From Podarcis erhardii (Eukaryota), in assembly GCA_964252035.1 (NCBI GenBank), contig OZ176212.1: a DNA stretch of 64,000 bases; one strand, given 5' to 3'. Under the pieces are notes generated by a model. It was not told the DNA's origin, ran no database searches, and saw only the letters and a program-made list of their open reading frames with translations. The position numbers and the translations under genes are program-made. This document shows positions 23,479 to 49,926 of the stretch, in pieces. How positions within the stretch are numbered: position 1 is the stretch's first letter; each line of letters starts with the position of its first letter.

Positions 23479-23709
23479 GCTATCTTGTAATTCAGATTTG
23501 GCCTTAAAGTACAACTATCAGTGTGCTTCCCTTGTTCGTGTATAAAATAACCACACACTCCAGTCTGCTCTATTTGAAGCCTAATTTCAGTGAGGGGAGA
23601 GGATCCAGTGGTACCAGGAAAGGCCCATACGGGCATAACTGCACTCACAGGTCCTAGAATGGAAATTGCACTCTGTGAGTATAACTTTCACTATCTGAGG
23701 TCCAAACTA

Positions 23710-24387
23710 TTTGTTGTTATTGTTTAGTCGTTTAGTTGTGTCCGACTCTTCGTGACCGCATGGACCAGAGCACTGCAGGCACTCCTGTCTTCCGCTGCCT
23801 TCTGCAGCTTGGTCAAACTCATGTTGGTTGCTTCGAGAACACTGTCCAACCATCTTGCCCTCTGTCGTCCCCTTCTCCTTGTGCCCTCCATCTTTCCCAG
23901 CATCAGGGTCTTTTCCAGGGAGTCTGCTCATGAGGTGGCCAAAGTATTGGAGCCTCAGCTTCAGGATCTGTCCTTCCAGTGAGCACTCAGGGCTGATTTC
24001 CTTAAGAATGGATAGGTTTGATCTTCTTGCAGTCCATGGGACTCTCAAGAGCCTCCTCCAGCACCATAATTCAAAAGCATCAATTCTTCAGTGATCAGCC
24101 TTCTTTATGGTTCAGCTCTCACTTCCATACATCACTACTCAGAAAACCATAGCTTTAACTATACGGGCCTTTGTTGGCAAGGTGAGGTCTCTGCTTTTTA
24201 AGATGCTGTCTAGGTTTGTCATCACTTTTCTCCAAAGAAGCAGGCGTCTTTTAATTTCGTGACTGCTGTCACCATCTGCAGTGATCATGGAACCCAAGAA
24301 AGTAAAATCTCTCACTGCCTCCATTTCTTCCCCTTCTGTTTGCCAGGAGGAGATGGGACCAGTGGCCATGATCTTAGTTTTTTTTTA
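23710..24387 (-). mobile_element. Bov-B (RTE clade) LINE 3' fragment
   Basis: Minus-strand peptides MATGPISSWQ...DFTFLGSMITADGDSSHEIKRRLLL and ...LKLRLQYFGHLM are typical of the Bov-B ORF C-terminus; (AAC)n-like tail. Confidence 0.9.
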
Positions 24388-28746: not shown

Positions 28747-29572
28747 TGTCAGAGCTGCCCCAAGGTCCCAGCTCACAGAGGACCAACGCCAGGTCGTCGT
28801 TATGTACAAAAGTCTTTATTAAAGTTCAGTTTCCATTTCAAAGCCGCAGCGCGCAGCTCTACGTCTTAAACCCTAGACCGTCGAAGTTCCGTCTGAATCT
28901 CCTCCCCCCTGACACCAGTTTAAGATTCTAGCCCTGCTCCACCTCTTCCTCTGCTCTCTCCTCCGCTGGGTCCTCCTGCCCGCTGAGGCATTCCCCTTTC
29001 TGGACTCTTCTGACGCTGAGTCGCCTGACTCCTCCCCCTGCCTCCGGCGGGCTTTAGGACCTGGTTCCCAGTCCTCGTTCTCTACTGTCCCGCTCGCCTG
29101 TACATTTGAACTTGGCTCTCGCGCCAACCCAGTGACCTTCCTCCTGACCGTTACACTGCTTCTATCACTGCTTCCCTCTTCCGGGATGCTGGCTGGACCT
29201 GACCTCCCCTCCGTTGCCTGACTCTCCGATGGAGGCGTGGTCAGCCCTGACTCATCTTCTCTCCCTGGTGGGGGATACGCTGGACCCGATATCTGGGACT
29301 CTTCCCCCCCACTATGCTCTGGTGGGGAAGCTGGTCCTGATCTCCAACTGCTGCTCTGGGAGTCCCCGCTGGCCCCTTGCTTCTGGAGTGTCCCCCTTGG
29401 GACCCCCCTTGCCCTGGCCACCGGGGCCCCCTTCTGTGAATCTTCCGATTCGCTGGAGAGGCTCATGGAATCTCTCGGGCCATTGTCATCTTCTCCTACG
29501 CTGCCCTCCGATTCTTCCCCTTCGCTCTCCCTTTCCTCCCTTCCCTGTGCTTCTGCTCCTGAGCCCCTGACA
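28747..29572 (-). repeat. 3' LTR (826 bp)
   Basis: Minus strand begins TGTCAG (29572) and ends CTGACA (28747); preceded by the purine tract GAGGGGGGATGGA; AATAAA at 28815-28820; TATA-like CTTAAA at 28919-28924. Confidence 0.85.
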
Positions 29573-29577
29573 TCCAT
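28873..29577 (-). CDS. U3-encoded 234-aa Ser/Glu/Gly-rich ORF with basic C-terminus, function unknown
   Basis: ATG lies in the PPT, the ORF spans all of U3 and stops ~20 nt into the predicted R region, before AATAAA; internal RSGPASxPE repeats; basic clusters PKARRR and RRTQRRREQRKR. Confidence 0.5.
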   Translation of the reverse strand: MDVRGSGAEAQGREERESEGEESEGSVGEDDNGPRDSMSLSSESEDSQKGAPVARARGVPRGTLQKQGASGDSQSSSWRSGPASPPEHSGGEESQISGPAYPPPGREDESGLTTPPSESQATEGRSGPASIPEEGSSDRSSVTVRRKVTGLAREPSSNVQASGTVENEDWEPGPKARRRQGEESGDSASEESRKGNASAGRRTQRRREQRKRWSRARILNWCQGGGDSDGTSTV

Positions 29578-29614
29578 CCCCCCTCGAAGCCCCCCCTTCC
29601 CCCCTCCCCCTCTT
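29573..29614 (-). other. Polypurine tract (G-run rich, G-quadruplex-like)
   Basis: GAAGAGGGGGAGGGGGGAAGGGGGGGCTTCGAGGGGGGATGGA directly precedes the LTR TG. Confidence 0.8.
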
Positions 29615-32600
29615 CTGGTGTGGGTTCCGGGTGCTCCAGTGTTGTGGGGGTGAGTGCAGGATACAGTTCATCCCCCCTGGTGTGCAGCCAGCCGGCTGGA
29701 TTCTGCCAGTCCGTGACGGGCTCGTCGACGTCGATCTCCTCTGCTTCCATTTCTCTGCAGGTGTGCTCGAACCCAGGATCCTCCCCCAACACATCCATGT
29801 CCCCCTCTCCCCCTGTTGCCTCGGGTGACGTTGTGTGCAAGGACCCTCCCGGCAGTTCCCTGCTCCACCCCACCTCCGGTTGATCTTCCCACCAATATAG
29901 GTGCCAAAACCCAAGACCGATCCCTCTGGAGAGGTAGTCTCTGGCGCCGTTTCCTCAGCTGATGAGAACTCCTGGAACGTGCTGGCTGAGAGTGTGGGTG
30001 TGAAAAGATATTCATCGAAGTAATCTGCCGGCATGGGTCTGTGTGGGAAGAGTGCATGAAACTCGTCTTTGAGGTAGTTCTCCTCCACCGCATAGTAAGG
30101 AACCCACCTGTTGTCGCTTGCTGGGGTACCTTCCCTGGCTAGTAGATATTCAACCCCCTCTTCCCCCCATCTCGGGTCTAAAATCTCTGTGGCCTCGTTG
30201 AGTGGCGCCGCCCTCGGTGACCCCCCCTTCGTGGGCGCCTCGCTGAGTGGGTCTGGTGCGGTCCCTGGCGCCTGGAACCTGTGGGGTGCCTTGTAGGGTG
30301 TGAGCACTGATCTATGAAAGACCGGATGCATTCTGGAACCCTCTGGGAGTGTCAGCCGGAAGGCTACTGGATTGATTTGTGCCTCGACTTGATAAGGCCC
30401 TAGCTGCTTGTGTCCGAGCTTCTTCTTAGCTAACGATCTGGCCGGCACTGCCTGGGCTGCTAACCAGACCCAGTCCCCCACCTGGATGTCTTCCCCAACT
30501 CTCCTGTGTCTGTCCGCTTGCATTTTGTAGGCGTGTTTTGCTAGCTCCAACTGCCGTCGGAGTTGTTCGTGGACCTCCTGTAACTCCACTGCCAAGGCCT
30601 CTGCTCCCTGTGGCTCCCCCTCCTCTACTCTCTCTAATCCCGGGAAGGTTCTGGGATGTCGCCCATTGTTAGCGAAGAACGGTGTCACCCCCGTGGACAC
30701 GTGCTTTGTGTTGTTGTAGGCAAACTCGGCTAGCGGTAGGTAGTCCACCTAGGTCGAGGGCTATTGATTCGCGTAGCATCTCAGGTACTGCTGCATGATG
30801 GCGCTGACCCTCTCCGCTTGTCCGTTGGTCTGCGGGTGTCTTGCCGACGCTAGGTTGATCTTGACGTTCAGGATGCCCAGCAGCTTCCGCCAGAAGCTCG
30901 AGATGAACTGGCGCCCCCGGTCGGACAGGATATACCGCGGTAGGCCGTGCACCTTGAACACTTGGTCTATGAACAGCTTGGCGGTCTGTTCCGCCGTGGC
31001 CACCTTCCCGCAAGGAATGAAGTGCGCCATCTTGGTGAACATGTCTACTACCACGAGTACTGCTGTTTTGCCCCGCGAGCTGGGCAGATCTGTGACAAAG
31101 TCCAGGGCCACCCTCTCCCACGGTTCGAGCGGTGTCTGTAGCGGTTCCAGCAGTCCCGCCGGCGGTCTGTGTACTGGCTTGGCCCTTTGGCATGTGTCGC
31201 ACCTGGTGACGTAATCCGCGACTTCTCCCCTCATCTTGGGCCACCAAAAGTCTCTGGCTACTAATTCCGCCGTCTTGTCCTTGCCGAAGTGCCCGGCGCT
31301 GGGCGCGTCGTGTAACTGTTGCAGTACTTTCGCGCGGAGGTCGTCTCCTGGCATGTAGAGGGCCCCCTTGCGGATGAGCAGTCCGTCGCGTATCTGGAAC
31401 TCGTCGTCCTTCGCTGTGCCTCTTCGCACCTCCTCCATCTTGGATTGTGCGAAGGAATCCGTCTGCAGCGCGTGACGTACCGCGTCCAGGTCCACGGTGG
31501 CTGAAGCGCATGCCCACGCTTTCGGTGCGAAAATGTGTTTGGCCGCCGCCGGTGCCGCTTCCTCGAGGTACTGCGGCTTCCTGGATAGCGCATCCGCCAT
31601 GACGTTGTTGTCTCCCGGGATGTATTCTATCCTGAAGTTGAAATCCGCAAAGAACTCCGCCCAGCGGATGTGTCTCTGGTTCAGGAACCGCGCTGTGCGC
31701 CAGTACTCCAGGTTCTTATGGTCCGTGCGGCCCTGCACTGTGTGTTTGGCTCCGATGAGGAAGTGCCGCCACGCCTTGAAGGCTGCATGAATGGCCAGCA
31801 ACTCCCTGTCCCAGATGGTGTAGTTCTGCTCTGACTTGCTGAGTTTCCTGGAGTAGAAAGCACACGGCCTCCAGTCCCCTTGCGGATCTTGCTGCAACAG
31901 GACCGCCCCCACGGCTCTGTCCGAGGCGTCCGTCTCAACCCTCATTGGTTTGCTGGGGTTGACGTGTAGCAGTTGCTCTTCGGACGCGAAGAGACGTTTG
32001 AGTTTCTGAAAGGACCGCTCCGCCTGGTCTGTCCAGGTGAACTTCTTCTTCTTGGAGCTGAGGGTGTCCGTGATGGCCACCGTCTGCATAGCGAATCCCT
32101 TGATAAACTTGCGATAGAAGTTGGCGAAGCCGATGAACTTCTGGACCTCCTTCCGATTGCGCGGGCTCTTCCAGTCCAACACCGAATGGACCTTGGCGCT
32201 GTCCATGGCGAGTCCCTTGTCGGACAGCTTGTAGCCCAGGAAATCCACCTCCGTCATGTTGAACTGGCACTTCTCCAATTTGGCGTAAAGTCTGTGCTCC
32301 CATAGTCTCTGCAGGACCTCCTTGACGTCTCTGTCGTGAGCCTCCTGCGATTCCGAGAAAATCAGGATGTCGTCCAGGAAGCATACGCACTTCTTGTAGA
32401 GGAGTCCCGCTAACACGTGGTGCATGAAGGCTTGGAAACAATGGGAGCCATTTTGCAAGCCAAACGGCATAACTCTGTATTCATAGGTGCCTAAAGGCGT
32501 AAACATGGCCGTCTTCCACTCGTCGCCCTCCCGCATGCGTATAAGGTTGTACGCCCCTCGCAGATCCAACTTGGTGAAGATGCGTCCCTTCCGCACCGTC

Positions 32601-33450
32601 GCAAGCAGGTCGTCGATCTTGGGCATGGGGAATGCCATGGGCTTCGTCCTCGAATTTATGACCCGGTAATCAACTACAAGCCTCTTTTGGGGCGTGTCTT
32701 TTTTCTTCACGAAAAACACGGGACTGCCCTCCACTGCTTTGGATTCTTGGATGAATCCCCGCTTCAAGTTGTGATCTATGAACTCCCTGAGCTCTTGCAG
32801 TTCGTCTTCAGACATGGAATACAGTTTTCCAGTCAGCAGCGTCGCCCCCGGCAGGAGGTCAATCTTGCAGTCGTAGGGCCTGTGGGGAGGCAGCTTGTCC
32901 GCTTCCTTCTCGCAGAAGACCTCCAAAAATGCCTTGTACTTGTCGGGCACCGCTTGCAGCATGCCCAAGTGTAGCTGCGGTTCATCCTCTCGCCCCTCAT
33001 CTTCCTGGCTAGTCAGGATGCAGTGTTCTGCGCAGTAGGAGGAGGAGGAGGTCAATTGACGCTGGTACCATGCTAGTGCCGGGCTGTGCCTGTCCAGCCA
33101 ACTCATGCCCAATACTATGGGCATGTCCGACAGGTGGGTGACATTGAAGCTGATGACTTCGCGGTGATTTCCAATTTGCATCACCATTGGCGGTGTTTGC
33201 TGTACCACCTGTCCTCCCAGTAGCTCTCTGCCATCAACCGTGACGACGTTCAGGGGCATCGTGGCAGGTAGGAGTGCTATGTGATGTTGCTTGATAAAGT
33301 CCACTCCTACAAAGTCTGCATTACTGCCACAGTCAATGGTAATAGGGACTTCCATGGTGAGTCCATTGGGTAGCTGGAGCGATGCGGTGAGTTGCACCAC
33401 TGGTTTGGGCGGGAGGGGGTCTGTGGGCTGTAAGATCCCTGGGGACTGCT

Positions 33451-34516
33451 TCACTGACTCGTCTGGCTGGGCCCCAGTGCCTCTGTCTCCAGCCAGACTC
33501 CGTCGTTTCCCTGCTGTTGTTCTGCTTCCTTTACTGTTGCTGAGGCTGCAGTGTGCTTGTGGAGCCTCTGGGGACACTCTTTCGCCATGTGCTGAGCACT
33601 GTCGCAGATGTAACACTTCCTGTTCCCTCTAGGAGCCTTCGTCTTGACTGCTCCTGGTGTTTGGGCTCTGGTTGCTGTCTGAGCCCTGGCACCACCTATC
33701 TCCATCGGCTCTTCTCCCCCTCCCAGTGGAGGCGTGGATTGGGCGTGCGCTGTCTCTCTGGGAAAGAAAGGAGGTGATCTAGCTGGCGTGCGTCCCCAAC
33801 GTCCTTCATCCTTGCTCCAAGGACGTTCTTCCAGACGCACCCCTATCGCCAGCGCTCTCTGGACGACTTCCTGAGTGCTCTGGGGTCTCTCCCCCCTCGC
33901 AATTTCATCTTTCACAGCCCCATTCAGCCCCTCCCAGAACAGGTCCCGGGCGGCAGCTGAGTTCTTTTCCCATCCCAGCGCATTAACCAACGCAAAAAAG
34001 TGGGAGTGATATTGTCGCACAGTGGCTTTGCCCTGTTTCAGTCCATGAATCTCCCTCATGGCAACATCCACATCTACTGCAGATTGAAAACAAGCATCCA
34101 TAGCCTTAATAAAGGCATCTGAATTTTGGAGGGCAGGATCATTGTCGCGCCAAAGATTGCGCAGCCACGCTTTAGCTTCCCCATGCAGAGGAGTTAGTAT
34201 GAAGCCTACTTTTTCCTGCTCATCTCTAAAGTCCTTCTGCAGCAACTTGAGCGCGAAAACTACGTCTGCTCTGAAGTTAGGATACTGCTGCAGGCTCCCA
34301 TCGAAATGAGACACGAGGCTGCCCCTCCCTCTTTCCGAGACCAATCCCCTCCGGTTTGGCACCTGGCAGCCCCTGCTTGCTCAACATTTCCAACCTGGTT
34401 TGCAGATCCTGGCAGGCAGCGGCTGCTTCGTCCTCTCTCTTTCTGGATGCTGCTATTTCCATGGTAAGCCTTGTGACTGCGTCTTGCAGGGCTGCCATTC
34501 TTTCGTCTGTACTCAT
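33451..34516 (-). pseudogene. gag (coiled coil, retrotransposon-gag capsid, CCHC knuckle) with a 1-nt frameshift near 34365
   Basis: AGG ATG at 34516 (MSTDERMAALQDAV...); continues in the 33451..34362 frame (FDGS...LHGEAKAW...LFWEGLNGAVKDEI, CYICDSAQHMAKEC). Confidence 0.85.
33505..33511 (-). promoter_or_regulatory. -1 ribosomal frameshift slippery site G GGA AAC
   Basis: In gag phase (CAG GGA AAC), pol is in the -1 frame; 8-nt spacer, then an 8-bp stem CTGGCTGG/CCAGCCAG. Confidence 0.8.
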
Positions 34517-34596
34517 CCTTCCCAATCTTCGTGAGCTCCCAAAGCACCAAGCTTCGCCCCTCGCTGCGTCAACTCACGCTGCGAAGGTTTTTATGG

Positions 34597-34607
34597 AGAC
34601 GGAACTT
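34597..34607 (-). promoter_or_regulatory. Primer-binding site, self-priming (Tf1-type)
   Basis: AAGTTCCGTCT, 2 nt after the 5' LTR, is the exact complement of AGACGGAACTT at 34757-34747 in the LTR, ~29 nt downstream of a TATA-like box. Confidence 0.85.
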
Positions 34608-34609
34608 AC

Positions 34610-35438
34610 TGTCAGAGCTGCCCCAAGGTCCCAGCTCACAGAGGACCAACGCCAGGTCGTCGTTATGTACAAAAGTCTTTATTAAAGTTCAGTTTCCATT
34701 TCAAAGCCGCAGCGCGCAGCTCTACGTCTTAAACCCTAGACCGTCGAAGTTCCGTCTGAATCTCCTCCCCCCTGACACCAGTTTAAGATTCTAGCCCTGC
34801 TCCACCTCTTCCTCTGCTCTCTCCTCCGCTGGGTCCTCCTGCCCGCTGAGGCATTCCCCTTTCTGGACTCTTCTGACGCTGAGTCGCCTGACTCCTCCCC
34901 CTGCCTCCGGCGGGCTTTAGGACCTGGTTCCCAGTCCTCGTTCTCTACTGTCCCGCTCGCCTGTACATTTGAACTTGGCTCTCGCGCCAACCCAGTGACC
35001 TTCCTCCTGACCGTTACACTGCTTCTATCACTGCTTCCCTCTTCCGGGATGCTGGCTGGACCTGACCTCCCCTCCGTTGCCTGACTCTCCGATGGAGGCG
35101 TGGTCAGCCCTGACTCATCTTCTCTCCCTGGTGGGGGATACGCTGGACCCGATATCTGGGACTCTTCCCCCCCCCACTATGCTCTGGTGGGGAAGCTGGT
35201 CCTGATCTCCAACTGCTGCTCTGGGAGTCCCCTGCTGGCCCCTTGCTTCTGGAGTGTCCCCCTTGGGACCCCCCTTGCCCTGGCCACCGGGGCCCCCTTC
35301 TGTGAATCTTCCAATTCGCTGGAGAGGCTCATGGAATCTCTCGGGCCATTGTCATCTTCTCCTACGCTGCCCTCCGATTCTTCCCCTTCGCTCTCCCTTT
35401 CCTCCCTTCCCTGTGCTTCTGCTCCTGAGCCCCTGACA
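34610..35438 (-). repeat. 5' LTR (829 bp)
   Basis: Matches the 3' LTR apart from a C-run 2 nt longer, one extra base and one substitution that I could see; AATAAA at 34678-34683; TATA-like box at 34782-34787. Confidence 0.85.
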
Positions 35439-35761
35439 TCCATCCCCCCTCGAAGCCCCCCCTTCCCCCCTCCCCCTCTTCTGGTGTGGGTTCCGGGTGC
35501 TCCAGTGTTGTGGGGGTGAGTGCAGGATACAGTTCATCCCCCCTGGTGTGCAGCCAGCCGGCTGGATTCTGCCAGTCCGTGACGGGCTCGTCGACGTCGA
35601 TCTCCTCTGCTTCCATTTCTCTGCAGGTGTGCTCGAACCCAGGATCCTCCCCCAACACATCCATGTCCCCCTCTCCCCCTGTTGCCTCGGGTGACGTTGT
35701 GTGCAAGGACCCTCCCGGCAGTTCCCTGCTCCACCCCACCTCCGGTTGATCTTCCCACCAA
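35439..35761 (-). repeat. Duplicate of the PPT and 3' internal segment (323 bp) upstream of the 5' LTR
   Basis: Matches 29573-29895; similarity stops abruptly at ...cttcccaccaa. Confidence 0.85.
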
Positions 35762-48232: not shown

Positions 48233-49926
48233 CCGTATTTTTCCTTCTATAACACGCAGATTTTTTCTTCTAAAAAGGAAGGGGAAATGTCTGTGCGTGT
48301 TATAGAGCGAATGTGTGGTCCCTGGAGCCGAAAAATCATGCAAAAATCAAATCGCGGCGCTGCACGCTGCACGGAGAAGCGAAACCTGAAAAGAGGAAGC
48401 GGCTGCTTTCCTGCATTCTGCCTCAGGGTCTTACTGCCCACCCTCCTCTGTTTCGTTGCTGTGTTTGCTGAAACGGAACAAAGAGCAGGGAAAGCCCCTC
48501 CCCTCCAGGCAAGCTCCGGTGCNNNNNNNNNNNNNNNNNNNNNNNNNNNNNNNNNNNNNNNNNNNNNNNNNNNNNNNNNNNNNNNNNNNNNNNNNNNNNN
48601 NNNNNNNNNNNNNNNNNNNNNNNNNNNNNNNNNNNNNNNNNNNNNNNNNNNNNNNNNNNNNNNNNNNGAAACTTTTGCCTTTCTTTCCTCCCTCCCGTTA
48701 AATCCCTCTCCTGCATTCTTAGCCAGCTGCTTCTCTGCACACCCCTCTAATGTCCCTTCTTTGTTTTTCCTTCGCTCCCCACTTAAAATGTGGTTACAAA
48801 GCATGGATCCACAGGGATCCTCAGGATCTTTGCATTGGGTCACCCCAAATTCACCATCAGATCACATAGCATGTCCATGGCTACAGCCTGCACCAAAAAA
48901 ATCAGGCACCCACTGTTGCTTGGGGCTGCAGTGGTGCAAAAATGTGGTTTAAAAGCATGGATCCACAGGGATTCTCAGGATCCTTGCATTGGGTCACCCC
49001 AAATTCACCATCAGATCACATAGCATGTCCATGGCTACAGCCTGCACCAAAAAAATCACGCACCCACTGTTGCCTGGGGCTGCAATGGTGCAAAAATGTG
49101 GTTACAAAGCATGGATCCACAGGGATTCTCAGGATCTTTGCATTGGGTCACCCCAAATTCACCATCAGATCACATAGCATGTCCATGGCTACAGCCTGCC
49201 CCCCCAAAATCACGCACCCACTGTTGCCTGGGGCTGCAATGGTGCAAAAATGTGGTTAAAAAGCATGGATCCCCAGGGATTCTCAGGATCCTTGCATTGG
49301 GTCACCCCAAATTCACCATCAGATCACATAGCATGTCCATGGCTACAGCCTGCCCCCCCAAAATCACGCACCCACTGTTGCCTGGGGCTGCAATGGTGCA
49401 AAAATGTGGTTAAAAAGCATGGATCCACAGGAATTCTCAGGATTTTGGCATTGGGTCACCCCAAATTCACCATCAGATCACATAGCATGTCCATGGCTAC
49501 AGCCTGCCCCCCCCCAAATCACATACCCACTGTTGCCTGGGGCTGCAATGGTGCAAAAACGTGGTTACAAACCATGGATCCACATGGATCCTCAGGATCT
49601 TTGCATTGGGTCAGCCCAAATTCACCATCAGAGCACATAGCATGTCCATGGCTACAGCCTGCCCCCAAAAAATCACGCACCCACTGTTGCCTGGGGATGC
49701 AATGGTGCAAAAACGTGGTTACAAACCATGGATGCACAGGGATTCTCAGGATTTTTGCATTGGGTCAGCCCAAATTCACCATCAGATCACATGTCTGTGG
49801 CCACAGCATGAAGCACAAAAATGATACATCCACTGTTTCATTCAGAATGTTTTTTCCCTTGTTTTCCTCCTCTAAAAACGATGTGCGTGTTATGGTCAGG
49901 TGCGTGTTATAGAGCGAAAAATACGG
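48233..49926. mobile_element. pogo/Tc2-like MITE derivative carrying a tandem array
   Basis: TA-CCGTATTTT...TTATAGAGCGAAAAATACGG-TA; subterminal sequence shared with the MITE at 39075-39333; includes an N gap at 48523-48667. Confidence 0.8.
48785..49792. repeat. 154-bp tandem repeat, ~6.5 copies
   Basis: Unit starts near 48785, 48939, 49093, 49247, 49401, 49556 and 49710; units are highly similar. Confidence 0.95.

Follow-up and report, generated by a model that had tools for sequence, protein, structure and literature searches.

HIV nef and MMTV sag are coding sequences in the U3 region of the 3′ LTR, and their separate proteins are made from RNAs of their own. Plants, and to some extent fish, are known to have elements with a Pol end encoded in the LTR. 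In the plant CRM group A chromoviruses (CR motif/CHDCR), the Pol frame extends into the 3′ LTR, as seems to be the case here (PMC3059260, PMC3605345, PMC6317226). In V-clade1 of the Tetraodontiformes (pufferfish), pol partly overlaps the LTR, with a Pol of 1119 aa (PMC11117352). With these two precedents, the principle is already known. To our knowledge, little has been established about the insertion-site choice of vertebrate gypsy elements beyond the chromodomain. The integrase of the element Ty1 has ~260 disordered C-terminal residues, which hold an NLS and a short targeting domain (PMC8487063). The same integrase is a CK2 substrate, and mutants of the sites were without effect on mobility (PMC9673352).

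Neither the family described below nor any vertebrate chromovirus whose U3 is coding throughout was found in the literature searched, the scope of which left Repbase, Dfam and subscription journals aside. These, or supplements, may hold a description of the family.

The gypsy element and its LTRs

The window, i.e. the whole 64,000-nt stretch of Podarcis erhardii DNA analysed, contains a gypsy element at 28747-35761 on the minus strand, on which all its features below are located. Pfam matches followed the order gag, protease, RT, RNase H and integrase, which is that of Tf1/sushi chromoviruses. Gag (Ty3 capsid and zinc knuckle, 33454-34516) is broken near 34300. Pol, in which Pfam matched protease, RT, RNase H and the zinc finger and core of the integrase (30764-33628), overlaps gag in the -1 frame at the sequence level. 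The overlap holds a candidate -1 frameshift site, GGGAAAC (33505-33511), which we take to be the motif of sushi/PEG10. Two in-frame stops near 30750-30765 follow this part of pol. Behind them lies the C-terminal part of the integrase (29896-30748), with a Tf2-like SH3 region, a degenerate chromodomain-like region from which the aromatic cage is absent (30005-30199) and the first part of a linker. The second part of this acidic linker of Pol (YWW...MDVLGED...ELYP, 29586-29895) is severed from the upstream frame near 29900. Conserved aromatic-acidic motifs (FDDWLF, YWWD[DE] and ELYP), candidate binding motifs, were seen in the linker before the LTR (29896-30005 and 29586-29895).

A self-priming binding site, present as an 11-nt complement (34597-34607), replaces the tRNA primer site. 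As read from its sequence, the element works like a Tf1/sushi chromovirus, with domain order, self-priming and the -1 arrangement all present. The copy in the window is dead: gag, pol, linker and polypurine tract are broken, and so is the tail frame of the 5′ LTR.

Repeat comparison and inverted ends (TGTCAG...CTGACA) delimited a 3′ LTR of 826 bp (28747-29572). The full repeat of 1149 bp was rejected as the LTR; its extra 323 bp are linker, and the inverted ends, the purine tract and a step in depth place the edge at 29572. At 28747, the contigs of one sequencing run diverge (48 loose ends, agreement 0.38). The LTR ends of Tf1/sushi chromoviruses are TGTYANR ... CNTNACA (PMC3601003). The 5′ end found here, TGTCAGG, fits this consensus, and the 3′ end, TCTGACA, misses one position. 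The adjacent polypurine tract (29573-29585) contains an ATG, and it is here that linker and tail are read in different frames in the window copy. An indel relative to the window was carried there by 57, 61 and 70% of the contig depth in runs X1, X2 and X14, and 30-43% of the depth was without one.

The 5′ LTR (829 bp, 34610-35438) differs from the 3′ LTR by one substitution and three gap positions (99.7% identity). Two small indels shift ~21 codons out of frame and introduce a stop, so that its tail frame is broken, a point missed by the initial annotation. No target-site duplication was found at the element ends. Ahead of the 5′ LTR lies an extra 323-bp copy of linker and purine tract (35439-35761), which begins where the internal copy (29573-29895) breaks, near 29900. 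It may be an aberrant left end, caused by plus-strand priming upstream of the tract, or the remnant of a tandem array; support for such upstream priming was not found in the papers searched. The flanks of the element presumably are parts of one host repeat missing a piece, of which no second copy was found within the window. Elsewhere in the window, a tandem array was observed at 48785-49792 (6.5 units of 154 bp, 94% matches), and fragments at 23707-24384 are, judging by eye, presumably from an RTE/Bov-B-like LINE reverse transcriptase.

Within the 3′ LTR, a TATA-like CTTAAA (28919-28924), a putative promoter by its position, sits inside the coding frame, and R is predicted to begin ~25-30 nt after it. 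Over 11 nt, LTR positions 28894-28884 are perfectly complemented by sequence following the 5′ LTR (0.8% of shuffles), and this complement folds as an outer stem at the sequence level. In Tf1/sushi self-priming, pairing joins the 5′ end of the RNA to the primer site (10.1101/2022.12.06.519325). R is therefore predicted to start near 28894, where the predicted self-primer (28884-28894) overlaps the last codons of the frame (DSDGTS). An AATAAA polyadenylation signal follows at 28815-28820. Contig depth, which is not copy number, was several times higher over the LTR than over the internal part. The contigs of run X19, possibly an RNA run but not taken as a sign of expression, cover the LTR and not 29618-30157.

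The 234-codon frame and its relatives

The frame (28873-29577) extends from an ATG at 29577-29575 to a TAG at 28875-28873. The initial annotation had described a 234-aa frame whose ATG lies inside the polypurine tract and which stays open through all of U3, across the TATA-like box, to a stop ~20 nt into R. All of this was confirmed, with R as predicted and the stop 52 nt before AATAAA. The product, hereafter the tail, has an acidic start, an invariant SSESEDSQKGAP, a Ser/Pro/Gly middle and a basic end with RKRW..WC. The repeated RSGPASxPE motif described earlier is present in the window, but it is characteristic of a subfamily: a 21-residue stretch with its second exact copy is wholly missing from five of the seven tails compared. 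Shuffling produced a frame at least this long in 0.03-0.6% of cases for the 826-bp LTR and in 0.07-2.2% for the 1149-bp repeat. The antisense frames, with 3-12 stops, were set aside.

The tail had no match in Pfam, PDB sequences, the ESM Atlas, viral contigs or prokaryote genomes, collections with few animal transposon proteins. Four matches, all from the same family, were obtained among 1.84 billion representatives, and near-identical words occurred in sequencing runs of seven organisms at a share of at least 0.25. The 234-aa query found five proteins of similar length (three of them, from contigs, with 53-60% identity over 79-99% of the query). A profile search of longer proteins yielded five Podarcis muralis clusters. 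In the best of these, a 1498-aa Pol ends in a stretch that matches the query over its full length. For these clusters and further ones obtained later, 15 of 23, 15 of 24, 12 of 12, 3 of 3 and 7 of 7 members were listed. All named relatives were Podarcis. In Podarcis Pol models of up to 1506 aa, the integrase, the chromodomain-like region, the acidic linker, a GGFEGG-MDVRG junction and the whole U3 frame form one chain. These long proteins are automatic gene models in which exon structure is not visible, and they are found only if the frame is open.

The linker mark YWW was present in 32 of the 64 fetched proteins. Half of these 32 (16) share a stop, which they reach without a change of frame through the purine tract and the whole of U3. 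The integrase core is present in 14 of the 16, and the GGF[EK]GGMD junction is clean in 13 of those 14. Eight others cross the tract in frame and then break or end, P0014 and P0018 doing so 2-9 residues behind it; four leave the tract in another frame, and four end ahead of it. Pol is fused in frame in 24 of the 28 proteins that reach the tract. Mixed-frame junctions were seen in P0055, P0062 and P0005. Complete tails are 211-220 residues long, share the stop position (16/16) and without exception carry the Met of the junction. When the query consisted of chromodomain and linker and included no more than 13 residues of the tail, the search gave five clusters, four with a clean in-frame member and one with a mixed-frame member.

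An integrase tree, restricted to family members, placed in-frame members in all main groups. Out-of-frame copies adjoin in-frame ones that are nearly identical to them, a pattern suggestive of G-run slips in single copies or assemblies. Within the clade of the window copy, none of the members is open as far as the final stop. One of them, P0012, has a clean crossing of the tract, and U3 is open in the window, from which we infer full read-through in this group too. The frame is very probably the C-terminal end of Pol, i.e. of the integrase, in a lacertid Tf1/sushi-type gypsy family. As judged from the relatives, its ATG is an internal Met of Pol with a codon fixed by the purine tract, and its resemblance to a start is due to the frame change of the window copy at that tract.

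The initial annotation had left the choice between a C-terminal extension and an accessory protein, and the relatives, fused in one chain, favour the former. A separate protein comparable to HIV Nef or MMTV Sag, with the purine-tract ATG as its start codon and a spliced or internally started RNA as its template, would explain why the Met is found in every complete tail, why the frame fits within the genomic RNA and why the window copy keeps it open though the fusion is broken. However, the reading frame of this Met is that of Pol, and the purine tract includes its codon. With the promoter at the opposite end of the frame, no LTR-driven RNA has the ATG at its start, and no joint leading to the ATG was among the contig joints listed. 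We consider an accessory protein highly improbable, and the proportion of fused proteins given above lends no support to a nef/sag-like separate gene.

Several further forms were observed. The G-run frame slip in the purine tract (29573-29585) recurs in separate groups (P0053, P0048, P0059 and P0061), and the window and P0053 read alike at the tract; the slip may reflect frequent mutation at this site, errors of assembly or a form that naturally has no tail. P0014, a RefSeq model, ends two residues past the junction (GGMDTV), possibly because the model is spliced or the copy has a different LTR. P0034 and a contig joint at 29262-30189 represent forms without chromodomain and linker, with the SH3 region joined to the tail. 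The gene models P0013 and P0043-P0047 start in the U3 frame of a 5′ LTR and run on into gag. They are probably prediction artefacts, yet they show that the LTR looks like an exon.

Possible constraint on the tail

An open frame may also arise as a by-product. The LTR strand is G/A-rich and T-poor (T accounts for 13% of the LTR), pol would merely happen to have no stop before the LTR, and gene models together with the choice of open frames would exaggerate the pattern. In line with this, tail identity between subfamilies was 50-75%, vs 89-96% for RT, out-of-frame copies at the purine tract occur in more than one clade, and proteins found by similarity are necessarily open. However, the other two sense frames of the LTR contain 6 and 7 stops. 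The tail frame is open in at least five diverged tail types, and a model of neutral drift to 50-67% identity predicted 2.5-7 stops per pair. Gaps between subfamilies span 1-21 residues, and all of them keep the frame. The frame is also enriched in Ser: it has 40, whereas the best frame of shuffled sequences has 26.5-28.5 (P up to 0.0005, for a residue picked after looking). All seven tails compared have an acidic start and a basic end.

The contigs are free of the bias towards open proteins, as they were compared at 80% likeness regardless of open frame. Among the rows listed, which comprise all but two of the indel rows, the three large runs (8047, 16561 and 3067 contigs) had no indel at 10% or more in U3. 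The one U3 row at this level came from the small run X19, and R/U5 (126 nt) had at least three. Indels in multiples of three, a test put forward with the initial annotation, were found in four of the five sized joints wholly inside the frame and not in the fifth. Two of these joints, with a net 63 nt, match the 21-residue tail gap and are probably one event. The absence of a common U3 indel and the match of the 63-nt indel to the protein gap argue against a by-product, which we regard as quite improbable.

Tail substitutions had mean BLOSUM62 values of -0.19 to -0.83, vs a neutral expectation of -0.50 to -0.79, and this test between tails gave no sign of selection. Synonymous changes made up 5 of 11 substitutions vs 28% expected, among the rows listed (40 of 337), a difference that chance could equally produce. 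Most tail residues change at a neutral-like rate. The invariant columns are clustered, and their longest run of 12 residues (SSESEDSQKGAP) was reached in none of 5000 permutations. The conserved blocks could be promoter motifs instead. The picture fits a disordered region that is kept in frame and has a few fixed motifs.

The same data bear on a second alternative, in which the frame is part of Pol and kept open for the sake of translation itself. Frameshifted ribosomes, travelling to ~50 nt from the poly(A) signal, would clear the RNA of decay factors, and the tail would be tolerated filler. Long 3′ UTRs trigger UPF1-dependent decay, and read-through protects from it; no paper was found on such protection in retrotransposons. 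A stop shared by all 16 complete tails while substitutions look neutral, and its closeness to AATAAA (52 nt), are what such protection would leave behind. However, the stop overlaps the self-primer region, which may fix this neighbourhood for another reason, and read-through needs neither the enrichment in Ser and acidic residues nor the clustered invariant blocks or the charge polarity. We rate RNA protection as unlikely, though less so than a by-product.

Predicted tail function and known systems

The chromodomain-like region was compared with PDB sequences, and all four matches were HP1/CBX1 chromodomains, with weak E-values (0.35-0.82). Pfam Chromo was matched in one of the four proteins holding the region (E 0.066, short of the cut-off), and atlas scores were 0.82-0.83. 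Three positions align with what we take to be the HP1 cage. Aromatic residues occupy these positions in 0, 0 and 3 of 30 proteins, and methyl-lysine reading has therefore likely been lost. Behind this domain, 334-347 residues are predicted to be disordered, 211-234 of them from the LTR. FoldIndex was negative in 96-100% of tail windows, with values of -0.19 to -0.23 for the tails vs +0.15 for the integrase core. The last 45 residues have a net charge of +4 to +8 in all seven tails, and the tails contain 7-15 S/T-x-x-D/E sites.

We consider it rather likely that the tail is translated as the end of Gag-Pol and acts as a disordered integrase tail that helps the enzyme into the nucleus and tethers it to chromatin. 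A -1 shift in the gag-pol overlap would let ribosomes make Gag-Pol from the genomic RNA, which runs from R to R, and finish ~50 nt before the poly(A) signal. The tail would be translated only as part of Gag-Pol, from which the protease would free an integrase whose cage-less chromodomain is followed by ~340 residues predicted to be disordered. The tail may have a nuclear localisation signal in its basic end, and the short blocks SSESEDSQKGAP, EPG.KARR and RKRW..WC may bind host partners or be phosphorylated. Because every round of reverse transcription copies the U3 of the 3′ LTR to both ends, one and the same U3 would have to work as a promoter at the 5′ end and encode protein at the 3′ end. 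No translation would be expected of the 5′ LTR or of solo LTRs.

A more far-reaching proposal is that this chromovirus lineage disabled its cage and grew a targeting module from its own promoter DNA, with the LTR tail steering insertion to a type of chromatin. We put this forward tentatively and think it rather doubtful. The same low confidence applies to viewing the lineage, by analogy, as an animal parallel to the plant centromeric CRM in which the old chromodomain is still present.

The coding use of U3 is shared with HIV nef and MMTV sag; in contrast to these, the frame described here is fused to Pol. Fish elements of the V-clade (sushi-ichi group) have the same domain order, self-priming and -1 gag-pol arrangement, and their Pol measures 801-1119 aa (PMC11117352), vs up to 1506 aa here. 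Like the Ty1 integrase, this integrase has a long disordered region behind its fold, here a predicted one with a basic end and S/T-x-x-D/E sites in the numbers given above. Ty1, however, is a copia-type element whose tail is encoded within pol, ahead of RT, whereas the tail here is LTR-encoded.

The family proteins are deposited in UniProt under a generic name, and their architecture appears to be unremarked. The double use of the LTR is extreme: ~700 nt are U3 in one LTR and coding in the other, down to the TATA-like box and the self-primer. A cage-less chromodomain together with an in-frame LTR tail makes a concrete candidate for a replacement in targeting, and a direct parallel to the plant CRM elements. 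Membership in CRM was rejected, as the tRNA-Met site is missing. The likeness of the tail to the CR motif is one of arrangement, with neither Pfam nor PDB matches behind it. CRM elements are primed by tRNA-Met (PMC3059260, PMC3605345, PMC6317226), whereas the lizard element has a self-priming complement. In CRM the chromodomain has been replaced; here it is kept, but cage-less. In contrast to CRM, the frame described here spans all of U3, including the TATA-like box and the self-primer.
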